From the NCBI GenBank assembly GCA_964016885.1, contig OZ024752.1:47120001-47184000 (forward strand): a stretch of 64,000 nucleotides of DNA, given 5' to 3'. This DNA is from Eledone cirrhosa (taxonomy: Eukaryota). Shown here one piece after another: positions 5,899 to 62,000 of this stretch. The notes below the pieces were generated by a model. That model did no database searches. It was not told where the DNA came from and saw only the letters and a list, made by a program, of their open reading frames with translations. How positions within the stretch are numbered: position 1 is the stretch's first letter; every line of letters starts with the position of its first letter. Position numbers and translations under genes: made by a program.

Positions 5899-6083
5899 CT
5901 TGTAACTCGTTTTCTATCTTTGGACCGAGATCGTTGTACTCTGCTGCTACTGTGATGCCGACTTATACTATGGATACGATCTCTGGACGCAGACCGCGAA
6001 CGTGACCTAGTGCGCCTTTTCTTATGTTTTGCACGATGTCTCGTCCTACTTGTCGATCTACTACGACTTCTTGATCGTCCCAT
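5899..6083 (-). CDS. ARGLU1: first coding exon of arginine- and glutamate-rich protein 1-like (RS-rich N-terminus); the rest lies left of the window
   Basis: MGRSRSRSRSTSRTRHRAKHKKRRTRSRSRS resembles human ARGLU1 MGRSRSRSSSRSKHTKSSKHNKKRSRSRSRS; donor AG|gtttgt. Other RS proteins cannot be excluded from one exon. Confidence 0.72.
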
Positions 6084-10363: not shown

Positions 10364-10766
10364 ATAATATATAAGATCAAAAGATGGTTAAAAGAGTTCC
10401 ATGTATTTTATTATGCGCATTTCAAAAACAAATATCATCATGCAATAATATTTGTGTTTTCATCAGATAAAACAGGAAGACATGATATGAAGGTTAAAAA
10501 AACACTTGTGAATAGTGCAGTTTTAAATCAACATATCATAAAACTGCACTATTCACAAGTGTTTTTTAACCTTCATATCATGTCTTCCTATTTTATTATT
10601 GCATGATGATATTTGTTTTTGAAATGCGCATAATAAAATACATGGAACTCTTTTAACCATCTTTTGATCTTATATATTATTTATACTCCAGTCCTACAAA
10701 CTGTAGAGTGCTTCTTATCCGATATCTGCATTGCTTTATTGTACTACAATAAAACTCACCTCCTAC
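10364..10766. mobile_element. Penelope-like pLTR-derived fold-back element in (TA)n
   Basis: Inverted arms 10364-10525 and 10539-10680 with a 13-nt loop; contains a hammerhead; flanked by (TA)n. Confidence 0.65.
10402..10476 (-). ncRNA. minimal type-I hammerhead ribozyme motif (Penelope pLTR-like)
   Basis: tgttttat CTGATGA aaacacaaatat...atatttgttttt GAAA tgcgca TA| ataaaata; palindromic stem III ATGCGCAT. Confidence 0.75.
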
Positions 10767-10782
10767 ATATATATATATATAT

Positions 10783-11660
10783 AGATCCTGAACACTATAG
10801 ATCTTGCTTGCAGTCTGACCTGGACACAATGCAACAGTGGATCTCAAACTGGCAACTCAAGCTAGCTGTGGACAAGTGCACCACCATGCATTTTGGGAGT
10901 AAAAACCCAGCGTCCACATACTCCCTCCACAGCACTAATATCAAGAAGTCTTCCTGTGAACGTGACCTGGGCATTACGGTCAGCAGCGATTTGCGTTGGA
11001 CGAAGCACGTCTCTAAAATTGTCAAGAGGGCCGAGGGTGTCTTAGCATCACTCAGCAAGACCTTTGTCAGCCGCTCTCCAGATATCTATTTAAGGCTGTA
11101 TACAGCTATGGTGCGACCACACTTAGAATTTGCATCACCAGTCTGGAACCCCTATCTTGCTCAGGACATTGACCGCCTGGAAACTGTTCAGAGACGTGCA
11201 ACCAAGCGAATACCCTCCATCAGGCATCTACCATACTCTGAGCGCCTTGCTTCCCTGGGCATGGATTCATTGAAGCTCCGACGCCTGGCAACTGACTTGG
11301 TAAACACCCACAAAATTGTTAACCATGTTGCCAACAACAACCCTGAGTGCCTTTTCGATTTCCATGTGTCTAACACACGTGGACATGCCCACAAAGTAAG
11401 AAAACAGCACAGTTCCCATGACTTTCGGAAACATTTTTTCACGCTCAGAGTTGCTGAAGCATGGAACAAACTACCTGCATCAGTTGTTAGCTGTCGAGAC
11501 ACTGCATCCTTTAAGGCCTCCATGCTTCCCGAGATCCGCCAACACTACAGCTAACACATACAAACATGTACTTCCCTGGCATTTGTGTATTGTTCTATGT
11601 ACTATATTGACGAGTTGTAGTGCACCTGAGCACTTTACACAATAATTTCATTATTATTAT
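10783..11660 (+). mobile_element. CR1-clade LINE, 5'-truncated ORF2 C-terminus plus 3'UTR
   Basis: Stop-free ORF with [50 protein letters not shown]; (att)n tail; inserted in (TA)n. Confidence 0.92.
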
Positions 11661-24230: not shown

Positions 24231-24264
<34 letters not shown>

Positions 24265-25616
24265 AGTGTAACGTCCAGTTACTGTAGGTTCACCAGAGTG
24301 AGTATTCGATGCCTAGTTTCCAGCATCCGGCTAGATCGATACAGATCGAACCTTGAGGTGATCAATAGCGAACACGCGCCACTACTCAATAACGTAAAGA
24401 AGACATAACATATCATTATTTTATTATTAAATATATAGAGAGATAGAGAGATAGATAGATAGATACAGGGTGTCCTCCAAAAATGTATACACACTTTTAT
24501 TAGAATGCTGTTGAAGTATGTATACATTTTTGGGGACACCCTATATATGGGTGTGCGTGCATGTGCGTACTTAAAGCGAAATTAAAGCAAGTGGAAAATA
24601 AATATTTGGGTTTTAAATAACCTCAAAACACTTAGTGCGTAATTGACGGAGCAGGCATGTCGCCTGAGTCGTATTGCTATTGTCCAATTTTTAAATGATT
24701 TTATTACAACCGCCCGTCGGATAAATTGTTTTGATATGTATAAACAACCAATTTTTAAAAATGTATGGAACGATGCCAATTTTGTATAAGCTAAAACAAT
24801 ATTTCTCTGCTACTTAATCTATTGATCTCACATGGAAGCATTAGTGTGAGTTGAAATCTAAATTGTAATATTACAATGAAGAAAGTTTGCCGGGTATTTT
24901 AACATCTCGGCTATTATATAGCATATTATTAATTCATAACTTATACCATCTCATGTCAGTTGTAAGATATCAGATGTTTAATGTCTTGCGGTTCCACCAA
25001 ACAGTATTGCATATACGCAATTATTTCCATAGTATCAAACAAAGACTTTATGAAAATGCATTTTAATATTTTAATAACAATTCACGAAAATTCATCATAA
25101 TTTCTTTACGAAATTAGACCCCTATAAGCAGCTCTGCACCGTGGCTATAACGCATCTGGTCCGGCCGCTTCTGCGACTGCATGCATTAATAAAATATTAT
25201 ATATTTACCTCAGTAATATAACCGGTAGCATTGACAAACTTTTCGAATTCTTCATTACTGACTTCATGAATATCCATATAAAACGACTTTATGTCTACTT
25301 CCCTCTCAGGACCTTCGCCATCAGCTACAAATATTGGTTTATCTGTACCCATTAAAAACTTCCCAGCTGGGATAAACGACATTTCGCCTGTGGGTGAGAA
25401 AGAACTCGGATTGTTTGCCTGTGCAGAATATTTACTGTCTTTTTCTGGAGGAGTTGTTTCTTGTTCACATTTATCACGACTGGTAGAACAGCCACAACTC
25501 TTTTCGGGAACATTTTTATTGTCACCATCTTCGGCAACATTTCCCTTTGTTCCATTAATTACCAAGCTGGCGATTGTAACTAAAATTACAAGTCTTGTAT
25601 GAAAACAATTAAACAT
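12556..25616 (-). CDS. SUMF1: Formylglycine-generating enzyme / sulfatase-modifying factor 1, complete 8-exon gene, 364 aa
   Basis: Exons 25616-25209, 20032-19958, 17451-17369, 16121-15999, 14871-14757, 14312-14196, 13191-13132 and 12669-12556 join in frame. Signal peptide, CGC motif, [27 protein letters not shown] and catalytic [21 protein letters not shown]...NLGFRC are all present. Confidence 0.97.
13132..13191 (-). CDS. SUMF1: SUMF1 exon 7 ([20 protein letters not shown])
   Basis: tttag|...|gtatgt. Confidence 0.95.
13290..13720 (-). mobile_element. decayed LINE C-terminal fragment, partly duplicated
   Basis: Two copies of [18 protein letters not shown]-like sequence. Confidence 0.55.
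14196..14312 (-). CDS. SUMF1: SUMF1 exon 6 (VDAFP...[11 protein letters not shown]...AKNP)
   Basis: ttcag|...|gtaaga. Confidence 0.95.
14757..14871 (-). CDS. SUMF1: SUMF1 exon 5 (TFPWGN...DDGFVGTAP)
   Basis: attag|...|gtaagt. Confidence 0.95.
15005..15050 (-). ncRNA. degenerate minimal hammerhead motif (core CCGAAGA)
   Basis: ctatttccct CCGAAGA a-gagat-ttt-atctc GAAA ta TC| aggatag. Confidence 0.45.
15999..16121 (-). CDS. SUMF1: SUMF1 exon 4 ([13 protein letters not shown]...[18 protein letters not shown])
   Basis: tttag|...|gtaagt. Confidence 0.95.
17369..17451 (-). CDS. SUMF1: SUMF1 exon 3 ([27 protein letters not shown])
   Basis: tgtag|...|gtgtgt. Confidence 0.94.
18620..19165. repeat. 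G/T-rich imperfect minisatellite
   Basis: Recurring gtaggtgagtagagataggtagaggtgagtgagtg. Confidence 0.9.
19186..19857 (+). mobile_element. RTE/RTE-X-like LINE, 5'-truncated, with 11-bp target-site duplication
   Basis: ORF ...[39 protein letters not shown]; (tga)n tail; TSD agttatatagt at 19175-19185 and 19858-19868. Confidence 0.9.
19958..20032 (-). CDS. SUMF1: SUMF1 exon 2 ([25 protein letters not shown])
   Basis: tttag|...|gtaagt. Confidence 0.94.
20700..22422 (+). mobile_element. CR1 LINE 3' fragment with internal tandem amplification
   Basis: Near-identical to 11327-11655 on either side of the 61-bp array. Confidence 0.9.
20832..22234 (+). repeat. 61-bp tandem repeat x23, derived from the CR1 3' end
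   Basis: Unit catggaacaaactacctgcctcggttgttagctgtcgagacactgcatcctttaaggcctc. Confidence 0.95.
24466..24543. mobile_element. Tc1/mariner-type MITE
   Basis: ta-CAGGGTGTCC.CCAAAAATGTATAC...GTATACATTTTTGGGGACACCCT-ata; a longer relative lies at 36720-36909. Confidence 0.7.
25209..25616 (-). CDS. SUMF1: SUMF1 exon 1 (signal peptide...VNATGYITE)
   Basis: ATG at 25616; donor gtaaat. Confidence 0.95.
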
Positions 25617-26867
25617 CTTAGTAAATAGTTAAAATGTAATCAAGAGTGTAGAATTTGAAGTGACTAGAAATGGTTTGTATTGCCAAAAGGAAAGTGATAC
25701 GGAATACATTGCGGCGAAAACCCTAACATTTTGGAATCGCCGGACATAAGGTAAATAAACAAACATGAGTTATCTCCCCGAAGTAAAAAAAATCTTGCGG
25801 AGCAGAGCTGAAAACTTGGTTTCCATTCTTAGTTACAACTGCTTTCACTCACATTGCTAATGCCGTGAACTTCCTTTTTGTTCTGAATTTTAATTCAGTG
25901 TTTGAACAAATTTACGATCTTTCGCAAAATATGGAACCCATGCCTATTGTTTACGCACAGTCCCTACTATTCTAATTTTAATAAGACATTAAGCGCTTCT
26001 TATAAACTATACAGCTTTAAATATTTGAGGGGTTTATTTTTCAGTTACAAAATCACATACTACTTGTACAAAGTTGCCCCTGTGTTTAGATTAAATGAGT
26101 TATTAACCAAGAAAATATAATTGAAATAACCATTAAGAGTGTCCATCATTTCTATTATATTTTTCGTAATTTGCTTGCATATAAACAAAAAGTGTTCCAA
26201 TAAATATTTACCTGCATTACTAAGCCCTTTCTGTAGTAAATCATCTCACAGACTCGTCCACATTGAAAAATGGTTGTGTTGTTGGCACGACAAAAAACAC
26301 CCAGTCCACACTGTAAGGTGGTTGCATAGCTGTCACGACAAAAAGAGCCCAGCCCAGACTGTAAAGTGGGCACGTAGGTGTCACATCAAAAAGCGCCTAG
26401 TACTCACTGTAAATGTGGTTGGCGTTAAGAAGGGCACTCTTATTTCGACTTCATCTAAAGGTGCAGTCAGCAAGGTTAGAGTTAACAATGGGTATAGTAA
26501 GGAATTTAACATATAAGTGTGGGTCAACCTTGGCTCTGTTCCCAGCCCTCCAGGAGTTTAAAATGCCTCCTACCTCTATGGCAATATTGAATGCTAGATA
26601 TACCCCACCTTTACTATACAACCCATACATGCATGGAAAACCAAACATATATATATATATATATGCCAGGAAGATGGATGTAAAATTATATATATATCTT
26701 TTTTTGCCTGACATATCTTTAGCAATTGGAAAGACCAATGAAAACATTGTTTCCTTGGTCTGATTTGACAAGCTCGACCCCACTCGTTAAGCGAATGAGG
26801 TCCAGGATCTTGTCGATGTACATCTTCATCATTTTACACCCATGTGATATATATATATATATATTGT

Positions 26868-31300: not shown

Positions 31301-34300
31301 ATCATCATCATCATTTCATTTTACGTCCACTTTTCCCTGCTTGCAAGGGTGGGACGGGAACCGATTCTGGCTTGATTTCTACAGCTGGATGCCCTTCCTA
31401 ACACCAACCTCATTTACAGTGAGTGCTGGGTGCTTTTTTGCCGTGGCACCTCCACGACCACTTTGCAGTGGAATGATATGGACTCCCAGTCCCTATCATC
31501 TCATTTCTACAGCTGAGTAAACTGGAGCAATGTGAAATAAAGTGTCTTGCTCAAGGAAACAACACATCACCCGGTCTGAGAATTGAACTCACAACCTTTC
31601 GATTGCAAGGCCAATGCTCTAACCACTAAGCCATGTGCCTCCTGTATAATAATTATATTGAAACCAATAACAACAACGATGATTTAAAAAAGTTTTACAA
31701 TGTAAAAAAAGAAATTCATCCCTTACTTCAACAACAGCGATATGATACTCTCGTGTATCTGCAGCAAGGTTACAAATGCTCCTTGATTTTACATCATATG
31801 TGGCTGCAAAAAGACAAAGTTTTATGTAAATAACTACTACAACAGTGGCTGCTTAACCCTTTAGCATTTAAACTGACCGTATTCGGCCAGCATTCTCTCA
31901 CCTCTTTCTGTTCAATTCGGCTGTAACTAGCCACTCATACTTATGTTAGGGTATTGTTCTCAAAATAAATAGCATCAAAATCTCAGATTCAATATTATAT
32001 TAGATGAAGTGTTTACTATGAAAATACAATATTACATATACAGTAATGTAAATGCTAAAGGGTTAATTATAAAGAAACAGAAACAGTCCATTTTACTTTA
32101 TGCTATCATCATCATTTCTATGTCCGTTTTTCCATGCTTGCATGGGTTGGACGGGTCCTTCTCAGCACGGCATCTCTCCACTAGTCGTGTTACTTCGTCA
32201 TCTCTGCCAGTCCTAACGATTTGAGGTCCGTTCTCACAACCTCTGCCAGGTCTTTCTCTATTATGTCTCCCTCCACTGGGATTTCCTGGCACTTATTCAG
32301 TCACATGCCCCCAGCCACATTCATATATAAACTCATATTTCTTATATAATAATGATAATAATGAAATTATTGTGTACAGTGCTCAGGTGCACTACAACTC
32401 ATCAAAGGTGCATGTATAGTACATAGAATAATGTACAAATGTCAGGAAAATGAACAGTGTACGAGATAACAATAACAATAATGAAATATTGTGTACAGTG
32501 CCCAGGTGCACCACAACTCATCAAAAAAGTGCATGTACAGTACATAGGGCAATGCACAAACATCAGTAAAATGAACAGTGCACGAGTCATGATACACACG
32601 TGTGCATATGTATGGAAGGGGTACATCAGGTGTAGTTTTGGCGTATTTCGGGAAGCATGAGTGACTTAAAGGATGCAGTGTCTCGGCAGCTAACAATTGA
32701 CGCAGGCAGTTTGTTCCATGCTTCAGCAACTCCGAGCGTGAAAAAATGTCTACGAAAGTCTTGTCAAACATATCCCAAGTAAAATGTATCAATTGTTCAT
32801 AACTCAACATTTACAAACATTTCCAACCCTCCTCTTAGTTCTTGCAAAGTATCTCTTGTTAAGTATTAACTGGCAAATGTCAGCAGAATGTGTGCACTCG
32901 GGGGTCATGACCTTGATGTGGCCCGGCCTCTTAGCGTGTAAAAAGTTAAGGACTGAAACACTTGTTAAAGGGCAAGGGGGTTTCTTCTTCTCCGAAGAAC
33001 TTCTGCTGTCCAGCTCTCGGATCAGTTGGAGACGGTTGCTTCTGACAGGACCTGCTCGAGGGAGTGTTTGAGAACTCTTCCCCACATGACCCTCTCAGGA
33101 ATAAGTGGGCGAAGAAGAAGAAGAGAAGGTTGCTGTTTATACGAAACATGGTAATGAAGGGGTTGAGGCTTATAAGGAAAGTGACTAGAAATGATACTCC
33201 ACTACCACCACCACCACAATTACACCATGTAGGTGTGATTGAGGATCTCTCTCTCTCTTTCTCTCACAGTCATCATCATCATCATCATTTTTATGTCCGT
33301 TCTTCCACGCTAGCATGGGTTAGATGGGTTGTCCTGTTGTGGGCAGTGTCCAGTCGGCTGACCTTGTCTTGCTCATATGGGAACTGATTCTGGCTTGATT
33401 TCCTAACACCAACCCCATTTACAGTGAGTGCTGGATGCTTTTTTTTTTGCCGTGGCACCTCCACGACCACTTTGCAGTGGAATGACATGGACCCCAGTCC
33501 CTATCATCTCATTTCTACAGCTGAGTAAACTGGAGCAATGTGAAATAAAGTGTCTTGCTCAAGGAAACAACACATCAGCCGGTCTGAGAATTGAACTCAC
33601 AACCTTTCCATTGCAAGGCCAATGCTCTAACCACTAAGCCATGTGGCTCCACAGTATATAGTCCAAATGTGTACAATAATATCCATAAACCAATAATCAG
33701 TTTACTTACATATACAGCTATAGTCTCGAGAATCAAATGTTCTGAAGGTTGAAGCATATATACTGTTGTACCGTTTGTCTCGCCGACGTTCATCTAACAT
33801 GTGTATTGCTGAAGGAGAAGACAGAAATAGCATTTATTAATACATGCTTCATTGTGGTCACAACAATCATGATAAAATGCACCCAGTCCACACTGCATCA
33901 ATGACACAGCCAATTCGCTGCCATATAAATAGAATTTATTAAAAGAGAAGTGTACTTACTGCCATAAATTATTTCATTTGTGTAGTTAAAATTCAGCTGA
34001 CATTGATCAAGACTGGGTACTGTATGAAGAAGTCGAAATGTTCTCATATCCCACTGAACAAATTTGTGTCAAGGAACAGATACTAAAATCAACATTACTA
34101 TTGTCAAAACATTAATATATCATTAATCCATTAATCAACACAACCTCCCTAGTGTTAGTGCCACACCATAAAATGTAACCAGTACCCTCTTTAATACATT
34201 AGCATTTAAACCGGCCACAATTCTCTCACCTTTCTGTTCAAACCAGCCGTAACTGGCTGCTCATATTGATGTGAAGGTATTGTTCTCAAAATAAATAAAA

Positions 34301-37300
34301 TCAAAATCTCATAGATTCGATATTATGTGAGGTAAAGACTTTACTGTGAAAATACAACAGTAAATAGAGAGTAGTGTAAATGGTAAAGGGTTGAAGTGGT
34401 TGGTGTTAGGAAGAGCATCGAGCTATAGAAACCATAGCAAACAAGGTTGAGGACCCTTCAGTCATCTACCTCATTAGCGCTGGTGCCAATATAAATACAC
34501 CTAGTATACTCTGTAAAGTTCTATAGCTATACTAGCTATAGAAACCACGTCAAACAAAGGTTTTAGAAGGACTCTTCAGGTGTGTCAAAGACATAGCGAC
34601 CAGCCAAGTGCTGGTGCCATGATAAAAAGCACCCAGTGCACTCTGTAAAGTGATTGGCATAACAAAGCACACCCAGTTGCGATATACATGCCAAAACCGA
34701 GATGTGATCAATGGCCTGATAAGAGGAAAGTAATGTTATGTATTGACTTGATCTGTAATAACCTGTCCAGATACGATGGAGTTCTAGTTTCCCTTTACCA
34801 GATTCCACACGCAAAACATTGTATCAGCCTTAGACTCCAGTCGAAGACACTTGCTCAAGATGTCACACAACTATATTTATACCTAGACAAATGAAATGTT
34901 ATCTTCATCTCTATACATATATTGTTCATTTAACATACATTCATTAAGCACGATACTAATAGGGTTTATCAAGAAACCTATAAAACATTTTAATGTGATA
35001 AAGAAAGGATACAACTTCTGAATTTATGATGATTTCCAATCCCATTGGGTGGAACAGGCCACTTATGGCAGCATTGAACTTATCAAATTTATGTACAGCT
35101 TTACCAACTCTGACATCCCATAATACTCCATCATTTAGCACCAAATCATCAGAGGGATCAAATGTGGCTCGGTTTGATGTGTAGTAGTTGGCCTTTTCTT
35201 GATCAAATATCTCCATAACTTGTTGACCTGTGTTGATGTCATAGATCTGAGAAGAAGAGGAGAAAATAAAGGTTAAATAAAAAAAAAAAACGCATTTGGT
35301 AAACTGATGTCTGTAGCCCAATCTGGCAACCTTGTCACACTGCTCAACCTTTTAGCATTTAAACCAGCTCTAGCTGCCCAGAATTCTCTCACCTGTTTCT
35401 GTTCAAACCAGCTATAACTGGCTACTCATACTTACGTTAAGGTGTATTTCTTGAAATAAATAATATCAAAATCTTATAGATTCGATATTATGTGAAATGA
35501 AGTGTTTACCATGAAAATACAATAGTAAAAAAAGGGTTAAAGATGGATAATATTGCTACATTGTCAAGCAATAAAGACACTTGCTCCAAAACCTCACAGC
35601 AGGATCGAATCCAGAACCACATGATTGCAAAGTGAACTTAACCACTTAGCCAGAATGCTGACATGACTGACCTTCTACAACTTGGATATGAAAGATCTGT
35701 GTGTTTGGGGTTACCTCTACAATTAACCCTTTAGCATTTAAACTGACCATATCCAGCCACTCATACTTACGAGTGGCTGGATATGGTCAATACTCTATAT
35801 TTACTATTGTAATTTTGCAATAAAGGCTTTATCTGAGATAATATTGAATCTATGAGAATTTGATGTTTTTATTTTGAGAACAAAACCGTAACATCAATAT
35901 GAGTGACCAGTTATGGCTGGTTTGAACAAAAAGAGTTGAGAGAATTCTGGCCAGATAAGACCGGTTTAAATACTAAAGGATTAATGTATTATTCTCAAAA
36001 TAAATAATATCAAAATCTCATGCATTCAATATTATGTGAAATAAAGCCTTTACCATGAAACTGCAATAGTAAATATAGAATAATGTAAATACTAAAGGGT
36101 TAAGAAAATCCAGCTGTAGTTTGTGTGTTTGGAGGTGAACAAAATACAAAACCTGTATACACATACACTCACAAATATATACTTACATAAGCTTTCTCTT
36201 CTCGCGTTCCAATAAGTTTATCCTGCACTTTTTTACTAAATTCCATATAATTGTCTTCAGGGAAATTTTTCCTGCAAATAGAGAATGAGATATTATTTAA
36301 CTCTTTTGTTACCAAAACATCTCAGACCTTCTTAGATTCTAAGGTGTTTATATTTATCTTATCATAATTTTATGTACAAACCTTTATTAAGTTATGCCCC
36401 AAATACCAAATTAAGTTAGTTATATTACTAAACCCCTCCATATTCTTGATTGTTTTCAAAATTATTTGAGGTGATAGGCAGAGTCTTTCATTAGAAATAT
36501 GGTAACAAAATACAAAACGCTTTAAAAGCATAATTCTATTAAAGCTAATATTTTTTTTTATCAGTCAATCAGGGGAAAGAGTAGTACGGTAACCCTTTTC
36601 CAAGACTTCCAACCTGATGGGAGAGAAGAAAGCAGAAACCTGGGTCCAAATGTCTGAAACAAAGCAGCGTCTACTAAGGGGACTCAAATACCAGGCGAAG
36701 GGGTTAAACTGTATATAAACAGGGTGTCTCCAAAAAATGTATACACACTTCGATTACTTGTACAGGCAATATTTATCAGAATGCACAGCTTTTCCCCAAA
36801 ATAAAATGATCTACAGACATAATTTGAATAATACATATAAAACAGAATTTATTTTAATACATTTTTTTAAAGATTTTTTTCTGTATACATTTTTTGGGGA
36901 CATTCTGTATATACAGAACATATAAGCAACAAACTACTTACTGGTTTTCAAGTCTGTCTAAACTTTTCCACAAAGAAGAAAGAGGTGTACCCCAGGATGC
37001 TGAAGTAACCAAGAGGTTACCATCCTATTAATTAAAAATTTATATTAATACATAAAACAAAAGTAAAATTAGAAAATTAGAAAAACAAAGATGTTTTGCT
37101 AGAAGGGAAAGCGGACATTAACCCCTTTGTTACCAACCAGGCCAAAACTGGCTCTGGATCTATGAAATAAAATTACCCATTTTAAAAGGTTTCCAATTTA
37201 AATTAAAATCTTCCAACATCATTTGATATAAGAACCTTATATGAACGACATTACATTTGTAAGATAGTCTGTGTGATGATCTCTGGCCAAAACCAGCTAA

Positions 37301-44233: not shown

Positions 44234-47200
44234 TCTTACAGCTTTTGGTGTGGCCATAATAGGGTTAATCAGTGGGTTTGTTGGATGGACTGGTGGAATG
44301 GACATATTACATGGTAAGTTGGCCTCTGCCTGGAGTGCTGTTGCAGCACTGACACAACCTGAAATATAATATACAATATAATCACAGACACTTTCAATGA
44401 CCAGCAGTCAAGAGATGAATCAACTAAATGTCAAACTCATGAACTAACCAGCTGCTCATAATGATGTTAAGGTATTGTTCTCAAAGCATTAACCCTTTAG
44501 CATTCACATTACTTTATTATATACTATTGCATTTTTGTGGTAAGGCTTTATTTTACATAATTATCTCACATAATATCGAATCTATGAGATTTGATGATAT
44601 TTATTTTGAGAACAATACCTTAACATAAGTATGAGTGGCCAGTTTTGGCCAGTTTGAACAGAAAGAGGTGAGAGAATTCTGGCCGGATATGGCCGGTTTA
44701 AATAATTGTTTCTACTTTTGGCACAAGGCCAGCAATTAACCAGTACATTACTGGTACTTTATTTTATCGATCCGGTAAGGATGAAAGGCAAAGCTAACCT
44801 CAGCGAGATTTGAACTCAGACCGCAAAAGGGACGTAACTCTATGCTAGAAAGCATGGCATCCAAGCCTCTACCGATACTGCCAATTCACCGTCCCGCTCT
44901 CAAAATAAATAATATCAAAATCTCATAGATTTCGATATTATATGAGATAAAGCTAGGCATCTCTAACAAAATACACCCCCGTCCCACCACCCCCACCGCC
45001 CCTTTCAATGTAAAGTTATGTTGGTGCCACAACATCCAGGCCGAAACAAATGAGGCCGTGTAGGTGTCACGACAAAAAACACACAGTCCACGCTGTAATG
45101 TGGTCATGTAGGCAACACGGTAAAAGGCTCCCAGTCCACACTGTAAATGTGGTTGATGTTAGGAAGGGCATCCAGACGTAGAAAACCCGCCAGACAGTTC
45201 TATGCGAGAAATGACAACCACTCTTGCCCCAAGTGGGAAAACTCCCGTCCAAACCCATGCAAGCGTGGAACAGGGATGTTAAACGATGATGATGATGGAA
45301 GCCATTACCACCAAAATACAACAGTAAATATAGAGTAATGTAAATGCTAAAGGATTAAATAACCCCTAGTGCATTACTGGTACTTTATTTTATCGACTCC
45401 ATAAGGATGAAAGACAAAACTAACCATGGCAGGATTTAAACTCAGAATGTAAAGGGCTCTAACTACATACCGCACAGCATGTTGTCCAATACTCTACCGA
45501 TTCTGCCAACCTACCGTCCAATGCTCTACCGATTCTGCCAACCTACAGTCCTATTCACCACCTAACAATAACAAAAGAATGTCACAGGGAGTACATATAC
45601 TAACCTTCCGACATCAGGTATTCATGAATTAAATGAAATAATTCTCTTTTCTGGAAAGTAATTTTCGTCTGAGCAACAATATCAGCCTAAAAAAGAAAAC
45701 GAAAATAAATTTTTTTTAACACTAACCTATACAATACTATCTCTGGTTCTATTACACAAATCCACCAATTTTAAAGGGTTCCTATTTATATTAAAATCTT
45801 CCAACATCTTCCTTGCAAGTAGAGAAAAGCGGACGTAAAATGATGATGATGATGATTTTAATATATGAACCTTTTATTAAATTGTGTTATACTGTCTTAA
45901 TCATGAAATAATAATAGTGATCCTTCAAATCATTTCATTAATTAATTGTATTTCATTGTTCATCCAGTCCAAACTAATGAGGCCGTGTAGGTGTCATGAC
46001 AAAAAAACAGTCTACACTGTAATGTGGCCGTGTAGGTAACACGGTAAGAAGGCTCCCAGTCCACACTGTAAATGTGGTTGGTGTTAGGAAGGGCATCCAG
46101 CCGTAGAAAACCTGCCAGATAGTCCTATACGAGCGAGACACGGTCACCCGACCAATCTTGCCTTAAGTGGGACAATTCCCGTCTAACCCATGCTAACGTG
46201 GAAGATAGACGTTAAATGATGATGATGATGATAAATAAATTGCTAGATGGTCATTTTGGTGCCACGATAAAATGTACTTAGTCTACACCCTAGCATGGTT
46301 GGTGCTAGGAAGGGCAACCAGACGTAGAAACCAAGCCAAAATACAGATCTGTATGAGCAAGATGTAGTCACCTGGCCTGAATTGTTTCCTAATGCCACAA
46401 CTTGTCTAACCCATTCAAGCATGGAAAATGGACGTTGAAAGATGTTGATGATTATGATGATGATAATGGGCCCATGGAAAAGTTTTTTTTTTTTTTTTCC
46501 ATATTATGGAGGCACATGGCTTAGTGGTTAGAGCATTGGCCTTGCAATCGAAAGGTTGTGAGTTCAATTCTCAGACCGGGTGATGTGTTGTTTCCTTGAG
46601 CAAGACACTTTATTTCACATTGCTCCAGTTTACTCAGCTGTAGAAATGAGATGATAGGGACTGGGGTCCCTATCATTCCACTGCAAAGTGGTCGTGGAGG
46701 TGCCACGGCAAAAAGAAAGCACCCAGCACTCACTGTAAATGAGGTTGGTGTTAGGAAGGGCATCCAGCTGTAGAAATCAAGCCAGAATCAGTTCCCGTCC
46801 CACCCTTGCAAGCAGGGAAAAGTGGACGTAAAATGAAATGATGATGATGAATGATGATGATGATGATGTTATTCCTTGACTTGATATAAAACCAAACACA
46901 CACACATATACAGACACATTTACTTTTGAAAGATGAAACCAAAAACCACATTTTTTAATTACCTTCCTAATGTCTTGAAGAGAAGCTTCAATATTTGCAT
47001 TATGGTGTTTTCCTGACACACGTTCTATCAATTCATTGGAATACTTGCAGAATTTTACATGTGCTTGTCGCTTATCTTGAAGGACAGGTTCTTTCATAAG
47101 TTCTGTATATAAAGAAAATCAATGTCCAATTGAAAAATAATTATAAGTCTTTGTATTTCTATTATCTAATTATAACATATTTGTGATAATCTCTGGACTC

Positions 47201-50200: not shown

Positions 50201-53200
50201 AAAAATATTCATAAAATGTATGTACAGTATCTGCCTACCAAATTCCACTCACATGGCATTAATCAGTTCAAGGCTATAGTAGAAGACACTTGCAAAAGGT
50301 GCTGCATTGTAGGAGACTCCGAAACAGCATGGCTTGTAAAGCAAACCTCTTAAGCACAAGGAAAAGGAAATATTTGGGGATTTAGAATAAAAAGTATTGA
50401 GATATTTGAAATAGTAATTTTTCAATGTTACTAACTTGATAGCAGAGGCTGTAAACTCCAAGCCTACTGGGAGGGGTTCAAGCATAGCCAGTTGGCATTG
50501 AGGCATAATGGTACAGACTGCTAAGACATCCATTGCACTACATAAAGTTTCTGACCTACAAAAAAACAACATTGCTTTAGCATGAAAAACAATACAACAT
50601 ACAAAAGCACTTTCAAATTTCAAGATTTAATAAAAATTATTTTACAGTAATAGATTATTTCTTAATCCTTTTGATATTAAACCACCTGAAACCACCTCTC
50701 GGTTTGTTTTATAATGTTTATATTTAACTAAAAACTAGCCATCATAAGTTCATTTAAGAAACTTTATTAAGTTATGTTTCAAAGTCCTTATAAATTCTTG
50801 AGTAATTTTAAAATAATTTGAAACTCATAAGAAATATGCTAACAAAAAGATAAACTGGTACTTAACAGGATCTAGTCTAGAATAGGTACACATCCCTGTG
50901 TCCCACAAGAAGTGACTAAAAAGGTATCCAGCTGTAAAATATTGCCTCAAAAAGTTCCATCCAACCCATGCTAGTATGGAAAAGTTGAAAACTCTACAGA
51001 GTTTTCTACAGCTTCATGCCCTGACAACCACCAACCACCTTACACTTTTCTACAGCTTGATGTCCTTACAACCACCAACCATCTTACACTTTTCTACAGC
51101 TTGATGTCCTTACAACCACCAACCATCTTATACTTTTCTACAGCTTGATGTCCTTACAACCACCAACCACCCTTATAATCACCAACCACCTTACACTTTT
51201 CTACAGCTTGATGTCCTTACAACCACCAACCACCCTTACACTTTTCTACAGCTTGATGTCCTTACAACCACCAACCATCTTATACTTTTTTACAGCTTGA
51301 TGTCCTTACAACCACCAACCACCCTTATATTCACCAACCACCTTACACTTTTCTACAGCTTGATGTCCTTACAACCACCAACCACCCTTACACTTTTCTA
51401 CAGCTTGATGTCCTTACAACCACCAACCACCCTTACACTTTTCTACAGCTTGATGTCCTTACAACCACCAACCACCTTACACTTTTCTACAGCTTGATGT
51501 CCTTACAACCACCAACCACCCTTACACTTTTCTACAGCTTGATGTCCTTACAACCACCAACCATCTTACACTTTTCTACAGCTTGATGTCCTTACAACCA
51601 CCAACCACCTTACACTTTTCTACAGCTTGATGTCCTTACAACCACCAACCACCCTTACACTTTTCTACAGCTTGATGTCCTTACAACCACCAACCATCTT
51701 ACACTTTTCTACAGCTTGATGTCCTTACAACCACCAACCACCCTTTCACTTTTCTACAGCTTGATGTCCTTACAACCACCAACCACTTCACAGGCATGAC
51801 TGTCACACAGTCACATTTCTGTCTTATCAAATAGGCTTAGTAAAAAGACAAAAGAGAAAAGAAGTGGCAGAGGAGGAATAAAACTTACTTGCTGGGATAA
51901 TTGTTCCAGTTTTGTGCAATAGCTAACAGCTGAATCACTAAGCTTATGCCACCAAGCTGCTTGAATTGAGCAACAGGACGCCAGACCATACGGACAGGCA
52001 TTAGATCAAGTAACATTTCAATGTTTTCTTGCACCACTTCAAATGTCAACTTTAATGCCTGAAACAGAAATTTAAAACTAAAGAAATTAAGACACAATTC
52101 TAAAATAATTGTAATTAATACAATGGCAAAAAACACATAAAAATAGAAACAAATAATTACTACGATGAAGATGAACACTTTTGTGACAATATTTCTAAAC
52201 ATTTCATATTTGCTTTCTACCCCATCTTGCTCATATGTGGCATGGTCTCTATGGCTGGATCATCGTCATTTCATTTTAAGTCCGCTTTCTCCCTGCTTGC
52301 AAGGGTGGGACGGGAACTGATGCTGGCTTGATTTCTACAGCTGGATGCCCTTCCTAACACCAACCTCATTTACAGTGAGTGCTGGGTGCTTTTTTGCCGT
52401 GGCACCTCCACGACCACTTTGCAGTGGAATGATAGGGACCCCAGTCCCTATCATCTCATTTCTACAGCTGAGTCAACTGGAGCAATGTGAAATAAAGTGT
52501 CTTGCTCAAGGAAACAACACATCACCCGGTCTGAGAATTGAACTCACAACCTTTCAATTGCAAGGCCAATGCTCTAACCACTAAGCCATGTGCCTCCATG
52601 GATGCCCTTCCTAACACCAAGCACCTTACAGTGTCTACTGGATCATTTTTTTCTTGGCACCACAACTTTATAGTGTACTGGGTGCATTTTTTTCTTGGCA
52701 CCACCACAGCTTTACAGAGTGTACTGGGTGCATTTTTTTCTTGGCACCACCACAGCTTTACAGAGTGTACTGGATGCATTTTTTCTCGGCACCACCACTA
52801 CAACTTTACAGAGTGTACTGGGTACATTTTTTGAGGCACCCACACAACCACTTTACAGAATCCAGCAACCCTAGAGAAGTCGTCACATGCTAGGCCAGAC
52901 TGACATGTCCTCTCAACCCCTACACTGTCTTCATTTGATCATTTGCTCTCCAATCTGTTGCACCCAGTTTCTCACCATGTTCACTTTTAGTGCCACAGTG
53001 ATTCAGGTTTTGTGTATTATGGTATATCACCAATCTGCTCGGTCCCGTATCAAATTGACAAAGCATGTGTTGTTTCCTTGAGCAAGACACTTTATTTCAC
53101 ATTGCTTCAGTTTACTCAGCTGTAGAAATGAGATGATAGGGACTGGGGTCCATATCATTCCACTGCAAAGTGGTTGTGGTGGTGCCACAGCAAAAAAGCA

Positions 53201-53676
53201 CCCAGCCCTCACTGTAAATGCATCCAGCTGTAGAAATCAAGCCAGAATCAGTTCCCGTCCCCACCCTTGCAAGAAGGGAAAAGCGGACGTAAAATGAAAA
53301 TGAATGAAAATGAAATTAGAGCATAATTAGCCTTGGTATTTGTTTCGGTAAACGTAAATATAGACATGGATATGACCACATACACATTATATATAAATAT
53401 ATATGTATATATACATGACAGACTTCTACAGTTTCTGCCTACGTGAGTGTGTGCATGTAATAATTCTGGACATTTGAATGCATCATTATCATCATTTAAC
53501 CCTTTGCATTTGAACCAGCCATATCCGGCCAGAATTCTCTAACCTCTCTCTGTTCAAACTGGCCATAACCGGTTGCTCATACTGATGTTAAGGCATTGTT
53601 CTCAAAATAAATAATATCAAAATCACAAAGATTCAATATTATGTGAGGTAAAGCCTTTACCATGAAAATATAATAG

Positions 53677-53707
<31 letters not shown>

Positions 53708-56700
53708 TAATGTAAATGCTAAAGGGTTAACACCCATTTTTCCTGATAGTAAAGGTCGGTCAGATTGTCACAGAAGATACAGTCTATCAGGCTTCTACAG
53801 TTTCTGCCTGCCAAATTTCACTCATAAGGAATTGGTCAATCTAAGGTTATAGTAAAAGACACCCAAGGTGCTGCATAGTGGAACTGGATCTGAAACCATA
53901 CAGCTGGGAACTGAACTCCTTAACCACACAACCATGCCTGAACTAATGATAATAGTTCTAAAAATAACATACCTTGTTTGCAGGCATTTCAGTAACAGGA
54001 GAGCCATTCTCGTTACGCAGGTGAGATCGCCTTATTTCATCTGCATGTAGAATCAAATGAGCTTCCATATATTTCTTAAAAGCAATACAAACATAACGAG
54101 CTATCTGTCGCATTGTATAGAGCTTGTTCTCCATCGGTTGTTCAACTGATGCATCAAAATATAAAATTGGAAGTGTGCTCACCTTTCAGAAAAAAATAGA
54201 AAGTAGGAATAAAGAAATTATACATGGCAAACATTTATAGAAAAAAATAAGCTGAGTGTTTACTCTTCTTCTTTGTCCACTGGTTTTTTTTACACTTTTG
54301 TTACCATATTTCTAATGGAAGACAATGGCCAGTGGCACCCTAGGGAGCCTAGGATTCTCAAATATTGAGCCCCGCAAGGTGGAGTGGCTGTCACTGGCCA
54401 TTGTCCGCGGGAATGTTTTTGCGGTCTTGTCTACGGGACGCAGCCCTTCTGCCCCCATGCCCAAAACCCAATCACCCCTCCCCTCTCTTCTGCGGCACTA
54501 GAGTTCTTGCCATCTCCTCACCTTCCTGTCTTTTTTTCGTTTTTTTCTCTTCCTTTTTATTATTATTATTATGGTGGATTGGCAGTATCGGTAGAGGGTC
54601 GGACGCCATGCTTTCCAGCATAGTTACGTCCCTTTGCGGTCTGAGTTCAAATCTCGCTGAGGTTAACTTTGCCTTTCATCCTTACGGGGTCGATAAAATA
54701 AAGTACCAGTAATGCACTGGGTAATTGCTGGCCTTGTGCCTAAAGTAGAAACAATTATTGTAAGTACCAGTAATACACTGGGTATTTGCTGGCCTTGTGC
54801 CTATATAAGAAACCATTATTATTGTAAGTAATACCCTAAATGAAATAATAGTTTCACTTTCTGAAAATAATCCTGAATTTTAAAGGATTTAGTGGCGCAA
54901 CTAATTTTCTCATTTATCAAAGTGTGTGGAACATAAGTTAAAGATACTGACGCGCTAATACCTCGGCCAATTCCCTGCTTTAAGTTACATCCATAAACAC
55001 AACGGTTAACTCACCACATTAATTAAACGCCGGAGCCCATCTTTCTGATCAAATAAGTCGAGAATGATCCGGAAAGCAAACGCATGATCCAAAAATATAG
55101 CAGCATGGCAACGACTAGACTCGTGTGAACACTCAAGTAACCACAACACATAGCTGAAACAGAAAGATCAAAAGGATAAAGAAATTCAAAATATGCCAAC
55201 AGCATTATTTCAACATCATTTTATGTTAAGGTGGCGAATTGGTAGCGTCATTAGAACATCGAATAGAATGCTTTGCGGCATTCGTTCTGGCTTATGATCA
55301 TAAGACTAACACCCGAACCACTAGGCCACACAGATTAGACAGGGATTACATAGCCTATTCCACTCAGACTAATTATCCAATATCTGCTTGTATGGTAGGA
55401 ACACGTCTAAAGCTCAAATCAGATTGTTTCTGTTCCCTTCTTGCACTTTTTTTTCCATTTAATTTACCTCCATATTTCTTATAAACTGTCAAAACTAGAA
55501 TGCAAGCAAACAAGATATACTCCCTGGATATTTAGGAGGACAAAGTCTCCTGACCAGTCAAGGAATTAAATCCATAAAATTGTGAGCCCAACACCTTTAC
55601 AACTTGGCCATGAGCCTTTACTACCTTGTATAGTGGAACAACATAATATATGTACCTTGTATAGTGGAACATCACACCACAACATCAGAATATAATATGT
55701 ACAGTAGAACATCACAATATAGCTTACAAAGAGCAGCACAACGAAAGAAAACTTATGATGATGATGATGTCAGTCTAGGTAATAATCTAAAGAAATGACC
55801 TAGCTTGGTTAAAGAAATCTCATCTATTTAAAGTTACCTTGGACTCTAAACACTGTCATTAATTGTTATGCCTATAAAACCAATCACAAAATAATGCCAT
55901 AGATTATTTGCTATACACACTGCAATAAATACAATCAAATATGAAGATTCTATTTGTCTCTGTTGATGTCAAACACTTACTTTACAAGTTCCGACAGAAC
56001 ATGTTCAGGGAGTAAGCAGACCTGAAAATAGATGAAAACATAATTAAAAACAATCTAGTTTAACCCTTTAGCATTTACATTACTCTATATATACTATTGT
56101 TTTCACGGTAAAGGCTTTACCTCACATAATGTTGAAGCTACAAGATGTTGATGTTATTTATTTTGAGAACAATACCATAACATCAATATGAGCAGCTGGT
56201 TATAGATAGTTTGAACAGAAAGAGGTGAGAGAATTCTGGCTGGATACAGTTGGTATAAAAGCTAAAGGGTTAAAAAAGAAGTTAAGCTGTTAAGTCTGTC
56301 CCAAGAAACAGAGTACAAGACTCCCTCTATCACAGGATTAACACTCAACTACTCCTGATGATACTAATTTTCAGCTGAGTATACTGAAGCAATGTGAAAT
56401 GGAATGATTTGATTAACACAACACATCACCCAGTCTATATATACTGTATAAATAAAATGTGTGCCCCTATTTAACATTCTTCATCCATCTACAACAATAA
56501 GTGAGAAATGTTGGGGATATGAGTTTTATTAAGTAAACTAAGTTTCAGTATAAATATATTGAGAAATAGAACATATGTAAACAAATAGCTCACACTTATG
56601 TAGGTTTAGCTGATCCCCTACATAGTTTTCTTGGATGTTTTAATAATAGGGGCTCCAGTGCCACCATGAAAAGCATAATGAAATGTTGATTGTGAATCCA

Positions 56701-58990
56701 ACACCCTAACCACTAGGTCACGTATCTTAACCAATGCTGTAAAATAAAACTATGATGTTAGATCAGACCTAAGAATGTTAGACTCACAGATGAATGTCTG
56801 GGAAAAGGCTGTATTGCCTATATATAAAATTTATTCCAGTACACAAAAATAGACAAGATCATAACTACATAACAATTGTTACGATAAAAAAAAGAAGTTG
56901 TAGTACCCTTTCCATTGTCTCTTCAAAGTAGGAAAGATAGTATATACAAAGAGAAACTCCAGTAGCAGCAATGGAAGGTCGGTGAACTTCTAAAAGACGC
57001 TGAACACCATCTGAATTTAAAAATTTGGTTGCAAACTTTTTATGGCAGATCAAAGTTGCAAGGTACTGAAAGAGAAGAAAACAAAGTAAATTGAATTCAA
57101 TTGAATTGAAATCTCTCTCTCTCTCTCTCTCTCTTACACACACAATATATATATAATTATCATCAGTTTTCCCTGTAAGCATGAGTTAAACATATACAAA
57201 ATCATGGGCAAAGGTGGTGAGAGCTGACCTCAGATCGTTGAAGCTAACGGAGGAGATGACGAAGGTCCGTGACAAGTGGAGAGATGCTGTGCTGTCCTTG
57301 CAAGCAGGGAAAAGCGGACGTATGATGATGATGACATATATAAGACCCAAAACAGATCATATGAGTTAACTGTCATAACATGACAACCCGTCTAACCTAT
57401 GCAAGCACGAAAACAGACATTAATTAAATGATGATGACATATAATCATTTCAGATATAGAGTAATTTTTTTCAGATATAAAAGTAATTTTTGCAGCTTTG
57501 TTTATTTATATTTCTAAACTTCTCAGATTGGAGACACACTTTAAAAAAATTAATTTTCATGACTCATTAAGTTACATTAGTGACAGAAAACTAAATAAAT
57601 TGATGAATAATCAATTAAATATATCATGTCATCTCAAATATACTTCATATACAAATATTGAGAAAAAAATTGATCAGATTTCAATCAGTAATAATAATAA
57701 TAAAATAACTTACTTTGAGAGCCTCAAATGCAAGACGAATATCCTTGTTCTCTCTCAAGTTGATGTAATGCATAATGAGGTCTATTGCTCTGTATTGTAT
57801 CGCAAGTCCTAGCAACTGCAAAACAGAAATGTATAGAGTTAAATATATATTAACAACAAAACAGAGAGGCTTTTCATACATTTAACATTGCATCATAAAC
57901 ATTAAATTTTTCAAAACAACTTTTAAATGACTTTTCTTTTCAGAAAATATATCTAATGTAAATGAGATTGATCTGGAGTATCGAGACTAATAATATGGAG
58001 TTTCATTACTAGTGATTAGTCACTATATTGATTTATCATAATCAATCATAAAAGAATGAGATGTTTAAGCATGAAACTTTGTCTTTTGTTTTCATTGTTC
58101 AATATATATATATATATATATCACAGATTTGATGTGATTTTTATTGTGTTAACACTGGTCTGAGGATCAGGCAGTCTTGGAGTCTGGTCTGGGGGTGCCA
58201 ACCCACATCACGAGCCAGCTGCTTAAGAAACATTTGTAACCAGGATTGAGCAATAAATCTCCTATGTAACACCTCCACTTTCTTCTTCTATATATATATA
58301 TATATCCTGATGTCTTCCAAAAGTAACGGTCGCATTTTGAAAGGGTACGTCAATGTTTATTTATAAAACTGGTATATATTGTATTTTGTCTGATGAAGGC
58401 ACACCATAATTTAACTTGGTATCCTTGAAATATGTATAATGAAATAAATATGGTTTTATAAATATAGTTTCCATTTGTTAATATCGTATATCTACTCCAA
58501 ATACTTGTCGAGTGCTTTATATCAGTTATAAAAATATTTACTTGTTGTATCCCAACAATTTAAATAGAACTTTTGCATATATATATATATATATATAAAA
58601 TATTAAAAAAATAATGAATAAAACAATGAAACAGTTCCTTATATTAAACAAAAAAAGTTCATTATTTCTGAAGACGGCATATATATGTGTTTGGTATGTA
58701 TATTTAATTTTGTATAATTTTGTACATAGATCTGTTGAATATGCATGCCAATTCTAACACATATATATATCCTAGAAACGATCGTTAAATAATGAACTTT
58801 TTTTGTTTAATATAAGGAACTGTTTCATTGTTTTATTCATTATTTTTTTAATATTTTATCTTGACTCTGTATTCCGTTTATCTTTCACCGAAAGTGATTT
58901 TTCATTGCATCTCTTCTTTCCATGATATCCGGATTACATTGAGTTCTTCATACGGATTGGACACTACCGTAAACTCTTGGTAGATTTATC

Positions 58991-59055
<65 letters not shown>

Positions 59056-62000
59056 CTCTGTAGCACGTTTAGAATACACAACGGAATCTGATGTGATGAA
59101 AGCCTACTATAAAAACAAGAACTCCCATCCCAGATCCCGGAATTATTACTTCTGGACTACATGGAGTTCTAACAATGTTATTGGCCCTACCACAGATATA
59201 TATATATATATATAAGCAAGTATTGCACCAAGGAAAATATTAACGTCGGCGTGAAGGAGATTAAGAATCAATTTGCTTTAACATATGTTTCTTTGTCTAT
59301 TATAATTGTCTACATATGTTGACTACAATATATATTGTTCAATCATATGCAATACTTAATTATTTATTACACTTCATCAGCAAGCCTATAATAGTGGAAA
59401 TGCCTATTCACTATGCAGTAGAATTCAGCAACGGAATTTTCGTTTATACTTGAATATAAGCCAAGGATTATGTGACCCCACAAAAAAAAATCAATGGTAA
59501 AAAGAAGTCACACAATGAAAGTGAACAGAAAACAACTTGGTTGTGAAGTGAACAACTAACCACACAGCCATATCTGCAACTATAACATATATACATATGA
59601 ACAATAAAATAATATGAAGTCAAGAAAAGTGGTTTAGAAATTTATTTACCTCTTGGTATTCTCCCATTGGTATGAGATAGTGTAAAATAAGTCTTTGTTT
59701 CATGGAAGCACTCATAGGATCCATACAATAAGAACCAATAACATAGGACATCATTTCAGACCAGCTACTGTTACTAGATTCTGAAGAGAAATAACAAAAA
59801 AAAAAAAAAAATCAACATTTTTATGTAAGAACCTTAACCCTTTAGCATTTACATTACTCTATATATACTATTGTACTTTCACAGTAAAAGTTTACCTTCC
59901 ATAGTTATCTCAAATAATAATGCTTCTATGAGATTTTGATATTTTTTATTCTAAGAACAATACCTTAATATCAGTTACAGCCGTGTTAAACAAAGTGGTG
60001 AGAGAATTCTGGCCAGATATGGCCAGTTTAAATGCTACAGTGTTAACCATTTGGCCATGCTTGCATCCACACCATTAGCTGCAGTTTAACAAAATGGCAC
60101 ATTAAAATCGAAGACTGCCCATAGTTAAAAAACAAACAAACTATTACTTCCAGCCAAAACATAAGCAAACAATTCTTAGCTAAGGTTTGTATGATGTTCC
60201 TACTTCTAAACATATTTCCTTTATTTAATCCCATAGCTGCCAACAAATAGCCAAATTATCTTTAAAACAAAATATTTACCTTCTTTTTGGGGGCAAAACT
60301 CTCGTCGGGTAGTAACAGCATTAGATGAATCGTAACTAAAATATGTCGGTGATAAAGATAATTTCAAAGATGGTTTTTTAATGCCATCGTTAGCTTCAGA
60401 AGAATTTTCACATATTCGCAGTTTTTTTTCTTGTATCTCTGATTTGGAAATGGTAAATGTATTTTTTCTTTTATTATCAGAAGGTGTTACAGTAGTAGAT
60501 GTAGAAGAATTAGATGGTGTAGTTTTAGGGGTACAAGGAATAGATGTAAGATTGGGCACATTAGAAGTAGTGTCTTCATCATTTGTTTTAGCAAACATAT
60601 GGAAGTGAGATTTTTCCTTGGTGCTGTTATCACTAGCTTTCTGTTTTTCAGTGGTATCTACAAGAGGTTCTTTGGATGATTCAGATCTTAGTTTGTGCAA
60701 TTTATTTAACAGCTGGGCAACCTGAAATAAAATAAAATAAATATATAAGTAATAAACTAATACAACCAATCTAATTTGTTTAGCAAATAACTTGATCTAA
60801 GACTGTGTTGAAACTAGGAAGAATTAGATGTACTGCCATACTTTAAAACAGGATAAGTTGGAGAATCTTGTTTTCTTTGTATGTTCTATTTTTGGCATAG
60901 TGTTTCTATGGTTGGATGCCCTTCCTAATACCATTTTAGAAAATGCATTGGATGTTTTTAATAGTGGCATCAATATTACTGAGATGACAGGGTGCTTTTT
61001 ATTTTAGCACCAACACTACTAATTTACAGAGTCTACTAGGTTTTCTTTAATGTGGCACCAGCACTAGTAAGGTTGTTATGTCATTTGAAAAATAATTCTG
61101 AAGGAATAAAATCAACCAGAAGGTAACATTCTTAGATTATTCCAGAATTACATTATTAGCTAAAGAATTTAAACCAAAGGCTAATTTCTTATGATGAAAT
61201 TGAAAATAAAATTATTTAATAAAATATTCAATTATTCAAAACAGTATTTCCTAAATTAAATTATAAACACTTGTATTAAAGCTATGTAGTTTATATGAAA
61301 TATTGGGTCAGGATTGTTTTATGAAACCCAATACAATGCAAGTTAGAAATACAAGAATGAAAACTAAAAGTAAGACAAACAAAACAACACTTTACACTTT
61401 TACCTTATATTTCATAATATTTTGGTGTGATGAGCTTACCATCATCATACTTCATTCCCTTCTTTTGAAAAAGGGGGTCATAAGCCTGAAATAATAGGTA
61501 AAAAATGTGAAATATTGTTTTGTTTGTCTTACTTTACTCTAGTTTTCCTTCTTGTCTTGTACTGTATTAGCTTTCCCAAAATTAATCCCAATTGTATTGA
61601 AAAAAAAAAAAAAAAAATACCAAGACAGCGTTTTCATCCTTAAAATTTGAAGCAACGTCTTGTAATTCCATTGCTAGTGCTAACAATCCTACAGCATAGT
61701 AGCATAAAGGATCTTCATCTGTTGAAGCCCACTGGAAGAGGCGAGTCACAAGGCCTTCCTAGATAGACAGAAAAGAAAATTCAATAAAAAATAATTCTGT
61801 AAGAGATCTATGAGTTTCTTACAAATATACGATTTATTATGAAGTAGTAATGGGAAATTATAATTTTTTCTATTATATGAACTATTCTATATAAATGTAG
61901 TAATACTTTTGATTGGTGTAAACTAAGTGAGAACCTAAGAGTCGCTTCACTTCTCCCTTTCTTCACTACACAACTCCCCAAGCTCATTTCATCCTCTACA

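Follow-up and report, generated by a model that had tools for sequence, protein, structure and literature searches.

The window considered here, that is, the whole 64,000-nucleotide stretch of DNA that was analyzed, carries exons of DCAF1 on its minus strand. Three of these match the human protein, i.e., exon 59656-59778 (residues 300-340), exon 56868-57065 (residues 377-431), and an exon at approximately 34959-35250 (residues 1200-1282). A short exon at approximately 57718-57815 yielded no PDB match when taken alone, its likely DCAF1 identity coming instead from exon order. Adjoining the latter is an intron, 57816-59649 (minus strand), with splice-site text of GT at 59649 and AG at 57816, and roughly 780-790 nt from either of these splice sites lies a hairpin that contains, on the plus strand, a hammerhead at 58668. 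The hammerhead thus is antisense to DCAF1. Found elsewhere in the window are exons of an FGE-sulfatase (SUMF1-like) gene (14178-25628, minus strand; Pfam match at 25200-25628), an Arg/Ser-rich coding stretch (5886-6146, minus strand), and an array of more than 20 copies of a 61-bp tandem unit (20781-22240). The 61-bp sequence originated from a LINE-like RT fragment, namely from its 3' end, with the start of the array matching 11409-11524 at 99%.

The intronic element is larger than first annotated, extending on to 58993, and as a 399-nt unit (58595-58993) it consists, in order, of (AT)n, a short inverted arm, the hammerhead, a long arm, a 134-nt tail, and then (AT)n again. The left (AT)n tract, 58577-58597, is a 21-nt AT run which overlaps the short arm's first 3 bases, placing that arm's outer end no more than 3 nt from the end of the run, and which likely was the insertion target. 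The short inverted arm, 58595-58667 (minus orientation), is a reverse-complement copy of 58787-58859, and native family sequence within it is limited to 58658-58667. Those latter positions are the 5' strand of the native stem I, pairing over 10 bp with 58787-58796 (-8.2 kcal/mol as a DNA duplex) and serving as pivot or microhomology. Next, all on the plus strand, are the core box CUGAAGA plus an extra nucleotide, C (58668-58675), corresponding to the CUGANGAH of PMC4209133; a very long stem II (58676-58774), with a GG/CC base, an AU-rich helix, and an unpaired UA before GAAA; and then GAAA, a minimal helix III with palindromic loop, and a GUU triplet (58775-58786), including a 10-nt palindrome at 58777-58786 and with cleavage predicted after 58786. 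The portion of the long arm that is common to the short arm, 58787-58859, ends at what apparently is a family terminus, and 58859 may also have been the first reverse-transcription start site. A one-sided tail, 58860-58993, belongs to the same repeat family, as seen in contig matches, and it is followed by a 60-nt AT run (58994-59053). The first-pass annotation had missed this tail, the flanking (AT)n tracts, the fact that the ribozyme is antisense to the gene, and also that the layout is both common and published.

What that annotation did describe, a perfect 73-bp inverted repeat enclosing CTGAAGA, a stem II of about 100 nt, and GAAA-CGATCG-TT, is indeed what is present across the 265 bases of 58595-58859, with the named interior at 58668-58786. 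That is, 58595-58667 matches the reverse complement of 58787-58859 at 73 of 73 bases; the match extends at neither end, and on the plus strand a spacer of 119 nt separates the two arms. Within that spacer are CTGAAGA (58668-58674), an imperfect 100-nt hairpin (58675-58774; -36.4 kcal/mol folded alone), and GAAA-CGATCG-TT (58775-58786). Relative to shuffled sequences the fold has a z of -22.7 on the plus strand and of -19.0 on the minus strand, with none of 100 shuffles per strand folding equally well. The inverted repeat and its hammerhead-like interior are real, with chance ruled out. With a hammerhead descriptor that requires a palindromic helix III, two sites are found in the window and none in any of 60 Markov-shuffled windows, while a looser scan of the window finds four (58160, 58390, and 58668 on the plus strand, 10466 on the minus). 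An Rfam search of the window found no family at gathering score, hammerhead models are not among the 13 matches at up to E=10 for 56000-61000, and the exact 26-letter core pattern has no match among metagenome contigs.

The hammerhead itself can be compared with the minimal consensus for Penelope-like retroelements (PLEs) provided in PMC4209133, that is, CUGANGAH G...C GAAAN, a palindrome, and then NU H. Here 58668-58676 reads CUGAAGA-C-G, i.e., CUGANGA plus the extra nucleotide H before G10.1, and further along is GAAAC-GAUC-GU-U, corresponding to GAAAN, a palindromic loop 3, and NU-H. The helix III palindrome is predicted to form an 8-bp self-dimer at -10.0 kcal/mol, and a core-closing helix I is present, of 10 bp natively and 73 bp in the copy at 58595-58993. 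The G10.1-C11.1 pair does not stand directly beside GAAA, since UA intervenes between CC and GAAA, though GG/CC can pair. Contigs of four organisms (A-D), drawn from 4 of 24 listed sequencing runs, were aligned to the window at 80% likeness, and one from organism B, compared with 58705-58785, displays no substitutions, two gaps, and the same UA, so this UA is a family trait rather than decay of the 58668 copy. Because the C that follows CUGAAGA matches the extra nucleotide of the consensus (PMC4209133), stem II does not open with a C:A pair; the mismatch previously ascribed to that pair is instead a misregistration, with the C being the conserved extra nucleotide of CUGANGAH. What does depart from consensus is the UA that intervenes between CC and GAAA, together with the very long stem II. 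Position 58786 is A in other copies, giving a GUA triplet (52 X1 contigs, and approximately one-third of depth in X1, X4, and X7), with no variants found in 58668-58675 among the 40 listed of 89 variants. A fold in which the core is open is predicted to lie 2.2-2.3 kcal/mol above the minimum fold, with the minimum fold pairing the core boxes, and a single minimal hammerhead motif did not cleave in the experiments described in PMC4209133. The consensus match nevertheless supports, UA departure aside, the earlier identification of a Penelope-type hammerhead, here of minimal PLE architecture.

In terms of contig depth, which is a sum over contigs and not a copy number, organism A displays depths of only 2-12 over the unique intron sequence of 57832-57963 versus 10^5-10^6 over 58316-58579 and 58624-58990. 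The sequence 58624-58990 belongs to a multi-copy family. That family continues beyond the 3' arm, as seen with an organism B contig matching 58830-58990 without differences and an organism C contig matching 58759-58950 with one difference. At least two organism B contigs, among the 24 listed of 428 loose ends, align from 58658 on and possess 31 other letters upstream. Because these contigs diverge upstream of 58658, the native stem I is about 10 bp in length, with the 5' arm's remaining 63 bp an add-on. Comparison with other copies, as the first-pass annotation had proposed, therefore finds the 5' arm to be an added copy rather than upstream sequence native to the family. A blastn search of 58000-59500 found no second copy of the 58668 subfamily within the window.

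These same contigs bear on the idea that the long stem I is instead intrinsic and selected, i.e., that the unit is a fold-back DNA transposon, a rod-like RNA, or a tandem retrozyme with an upstream hammerhead. The repeats indeed are perfect and terminal-looking, and a plus-strand hammerhead at 58390 stands 278 nt upstream, a spacing described in PMC7229834 as typical of retrozyme monomers. The family, however, extends a further 134 nt beyond the 3' arm, and the 5' arm is missing from other copies, which largely refutes an intrinsic stem and as well sets aside a MITE or fold-back DNA transposon. In addition, the 58390 and 58668 units align poorly, possess different helix III palindromes, and have (AT)n between them. 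An intrinsic long stem I is the least credible of the origins considered.

The unit at 58390 is one of two further plus-strand hammerhead stubs in the same intron (58122-58576), with cores at 58160 and 58390, both of them repeat families and both bounded by (AT)n. All three cores, 58160, 58390, and 58668, are antisense to DCAF1. The units are dissimilar and split by (AT)n, which is not the head-to-tail tandem of a retrozyme. A joining of the 58390 and 58668 units into one element with a linker was considered as well and dropped, its basis having been a 4-letter overlap between two loose ends from different organisms. To the other side, 59054-59195 is a 142-nt, tail-like, (AT)n-bounded piece with an ACTCT motif at its start and a short reading-frame likeness to 58860 onwards.

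Could the inverted arm be an assembly or library chimera? Among the 32 listed of 8405 contig pieces, none spans the locus-specific junctions of 58595-58993, and coverage of 58580-58623 is 0.56, 0, and 0 in organisms B, C, and D, respectively. That coverage hole proves nothing, however, as identical arms are placed on one arm only and the AT repeat is skipped. Against a chimera, too, are the occurrence of the layout at three sites, with tails, in a manner matching published biology, and similar head-to-head joints in independent contigs of organism A. A chimera consequently is to be viewed as very improbable.

The outer end of the short arm corresponds to 58859, and contigs of organisms B and D end at exactly that position. 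Depth in organism B over three bins around it goes from 179 to 101 to 44, an approximately fourfold drop that fits a step at 58859/58860. With organism A the equivalent depths of 468k, 389k, and 163k, followed by 604k, are only a partial fall. Position 58859 apparently is a fixed family terminus. Counter to this, there is no depth step in organism D (233, 205, and then 310), the organism C contig runs through 58859, and the branch at that position could come also from copies of the 58595-58993 locus itself. Joints between arms were seen as well: among the 15 joints listed, seven connect arm to arm, and the X1 contigs that hold these seven have depths of 5-14. Being mirrored, these represent other head-to-head copies, ones that pivot at 58793-58811.

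Two further fold-backs with this layout are found in the window. Of 27 perfect inverted repeats of at least 20 bp and with arms within 500 nt, the three longest are 87, 73, and 39 bp; left out are inverted pieces of 42, 38, and 26 bp (2-kb limit) that belong to two copies of a dispersed repeat, 52323-53245, and are a different thing. The longest, 10364-10766, has perfect 87-bp arms (10364-10450 and 10594-10680), an inner hairpin (10474-10589), and (AT)n to both sides. On the minus strand, at 10466, its CUGAUGA...GAAAUGCGCAUA core is intact, while its plus-strand copy lacks the core box, and it pivots on an upstream hairpin whose loop is at 10526-10538. The shortest, 3623-3794, stands between (AT)n runs with perfect 39-bp arms and pivots in stem II (3662-3670); its hammerhead is truncated and GC-rich, with a longer helix III and a GUC triplet. 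This unit aligns poorly with the other two, such that homology is not established, and it adjoins a tandem array, 3795-4100, that is built on an inverted 25-bp unit. Each of the three repeats begins within 1-3 nt of an (AT)n run, each includes a hammerhead or the 3' half of one, and each has a one-sided tail to the next (AT)n, of 85 nt (3623-3794), 86 nt (10364-10766), and 134 nt (58595-58993). In all three, too, ACTC[CT] starts 0-4 nt past the arm's outer end, the joint chance of which is 2e-4 for a fixed motif and 0.001-0.006 in post-hoc nulls (20,000 draws), the motif having been chosen post hoc with n=3. The same motif follows 58491, a position 85 nt before the end of the 58390 unit, and 47 X1 contigs of that unit's hammerhead family end in (AT)n at 58491.

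A polymerase template switch leaves perfect arms and a 10-bp seed. If an ordinary stub had inserted first, and a DNA polymerase engaged in host replication or repair had later switched template on the 10-bp quasi-palindrome that stem I provides, such that an inverted copy replaced the upstream sequence, arms and a seed such as these would be expected, and no orthologous locus is readable that would speak to this, the unique intron sequence being barely covered in organisms B, C, and D. Left of the arm, though, no native upstream sequence remains, with (AT)n instead directly adjoining; the outer end of the arm matches the family terminus; and the one-sided-tail layout is seen with all three long repeats in the window. 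A switch of this sort is quite improbable, if less so than a chimera. Fold-back in the course of integration is the best reading, and to this extent the earlier interpretation stands. Recency was overstated, as zero differences between arms bound divergence only to below approximately 4% (<4.0% over 73 bp or <4.6% over 63 bp, as 95% bounds). Near-identity to contigs of three other organisms would fit, at the level of sequence, a young family.

The unit likely is the 3' stub of a PLE, based on its architecture: an inverted, 5'-truncated copy adjoins the 5' end with a palindrome at the junction. Protein searches with the tail frame, a short and hydrophobic query, gave no link to a PLE reverse transcriptase, which counts against a PLE stub: one search returned three candidates, none of them scored, and another, against 1.84 billion representatives, returned no matches. 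Pfam, as applied to 13 hand-picked ORFs of the window, found no PLE ORF and only a weak RVT_1 (10637-11551) plus the FGE-sulfatase domain.

How then might the arm have arisen? Taken as a whole, the locus is best viewed as one copy of a multi-copy hammerhead repeat within (AT)n of a DCAF1 intron, likely a PLE 3' stub, whose inverted arm would have been generated by two-ended priming; confidence in this combined reading is about evenly balanced. By this account 58595-58993 would have integrated into an (AT)n tract of the intron, with both of the cut target ends priming reverse transcription, and doing so at two fixed start sites, 58859 and 58993. The cDNAs from these two sites would end in complementary strands of stem I and so could anneal over 10 bp (-8.2 kcal/mol), and fill-in from those annealed ends would give exactly the sequence of 58595-58993.

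The first-pass annotation had proposed instead a snap-back PLE intermediate, which retains the fold-back at integration while differing in its priming. A cDNA primed at 58993 would reach stem I, its 3' end would fold onto its own complement and copy 63 bases, and there would follow a cutting of the hairpin at 58859, or its joining there to the left (AT)n end, in which the element's endonuclease may have acted. Snap-back is a tentative but serious second candidate. The pivot is exactly on the native 10-bp stem, and the minimum-energy DNA fold of the cDNA pairs its 3' end at stem I with an ensemble probability of 0.32-0.51, although the centroid fold is without that 3' pairing. For a cDNA that ends at 58658 the probability of pairing at stem I is about 0.4-0.5, which makes snap-back feasible. 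The other two fold-backs of the window pivot on hairpins as well, i.e., on stem II at 3662-3670 and on the loop at 10526-10538. Self-priming from junction palindromes has been put forward, as a hypothesis, in PMC3846280, and PMC8557442 ascribes the one-sided tail to endonuclease resolution. Snap-back nevertheless requires an extra, site-specific step to halt the arm at an apparently fixed terminus, and the seven other head-to-head joints pivot variously within 58793-58811, i.e., outside of the native stem I. Two-ended priming is ranked above snap-back because the arm's outer end recurs at the family terminus, with an end at such an apparently fixed position slightly easier to explain if both target strands prime. 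Even so, the finished products of twin priming and of snap-back are identical in sequence, and the 134-nt tail is far longer than is published for PLEs, which counts against a PLE stub. Within the portion of the literature covered, no published model was found that explains PLE inversions by twin priming or second-strand synthesis, or that does so via hammerhead stem I.

A further step would be to give the hammerhead a role in PLE integration, with inverted pLTRs explained by twin priming. Hints in this direction are that the arm ends where cleavage is predicted, an outcome that the geometry of stem I imposes in any case, and that the seven other joints pivot 6-24 nt downstream of the cleavage site, possibly with bias as to which were listed. 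In the window's other two fold-backs, by contrast, the pivot lies upstream of the cleavage site, and PAc did not require hammerhead cleavage in the in vitro work of PMC11167929. Such a role for the hammerhead seems unlikely.

With regard to the host gene, since the DCAF1 exons are on the minus strand, so too is the pre-mRNA, and the 73-bp stem consequently is transcribed while the hammerhead core is not. Indeed, no CUGANGA box was found in the minus-strand DCAF1 pre-mRNA at the element. The host assignment that was first made is borne out by these exons, whereas the ribozyme that had been placed within that setting is antisense to it, leaving the pre-mRNA without a core. The long dsRNA stem that had been suggested for this pre-mRNA is in turn predicted here, with a mean pair probability of 0.98 in a 900-nt context and with 68 of 73 pairs above 0.9. 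The copy at 58595-58993 itself is likely inert, its core being antisense to the host gene, single, and with a non-consensus stem II junction, and its sole effect likely would be that 73-bp stem. Penelope copies in lizard are described in PMC5625713 as heavily A-to-I edited; stubs such as this one are ready-made intronic dsRNA stems, and editing here, given lizard, would be expected rather than surprising. Separately, a young dispersed repeat with identity of up to 98-100% is present in both orientations (1571-1870, 31332-31642, 33340-33657, 46501-46850, 52287-52599, and 53065-53245), and an inverted pair of these, 540 nt apart within the DCAF1 gene, could also form dsRNA.

Taken singly, the locus is of small importance; PLE-type integration is known to leave such by-products, here within an animal genome rich in repeats. 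Considered together, however, such stubs are fossil reaction products, and the arm ends and pivots of thousands of copies could serve to separate snap-back from two-ended priming, as well as show whether the hammerhead acts in PLE integration. In PMC8557442 the inversion mechanism is named among the steps of the PLE cycle yet to be defined, and what value remains in 58595-58993 is as one data point on how those inversions form.

Among known systems, the insertion units of EN+ PLEs (Craig et al. 2021, PMC8557442; Arkhipova et al. 2013, PMC3846280), e.g., Pen2a_Av, are among those close to the unit in layout. As described in these sources they share with it a head-to-head inverted 5' copy that falls short of the direct copy by the length of a one-sided tail, and also a junction palindrome, a hammerhead in the repeat, and, as seems likely here, an AT-rich or microsatellite target; for EN+ PLEs generally, PMC8557442 describes an inverted 5'-truncated copy, a 30-40-bp one-sided tail, and a bias toward microsatellites. 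The tail here instead is 134 nt (85-86 nt in its neighbors). Unlike those units, too, no ORF is linked, no distinct target-site duplication is readable inside the (AT)n that flanks both sides, and the pivot is on hammerhead stem I, hence the single core in 58595-58993.

Poseidon of Anolis (PAc; Frangieh et al. 2024, PMC11167929) is likened to the unit by layout and not by sequence. Its protein, as reported there, cuts and extends both target strands in vitro, at AT-rich targets, and two internal start sites, or termini, bound a tail downstream of the hammerhead; the formation of inverted copies lies outside of the tests which that report describes.

The metazoan minimal type I PLE hammerheads of Cervera and de la Peña (2014, PMC4209133) share with the 58668 hammerhead CUGANGAH, a G at 10.1, and GAAAN-palindrome-NUH. 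A GUU triplet is common to it and to the mollusc motifs listed there, most are single dispersed copies, as is the case here, and opposite-strand pairs of minimal hammerheads are described as well. Differences are a stem II of 100 nt versus 7-8 bp in the Schistosoma families, the UA between C11.1 and G12, and a stem I of 10 bp natively or 73 bp in the 58595 copy, hence with no loop 1. Non-LTR retrozymes (Cervera and de la Peña 2020, PMC7229834; bioRxiv 10.64898/2026.07.22.740005) likewise are described as small non-coding repeats with type I hammerheads and as likely PLE-derived. Retrozymes are head-to-tail tandem, though, while 58595-58993 is not, its neighbors being different subfamilies that are split from it by (AT)n. 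By analogy with these systems, then, the unit would seem to behave as a PLE stub whose tail is longer and whose core is a variant one, the type of layout being already published.
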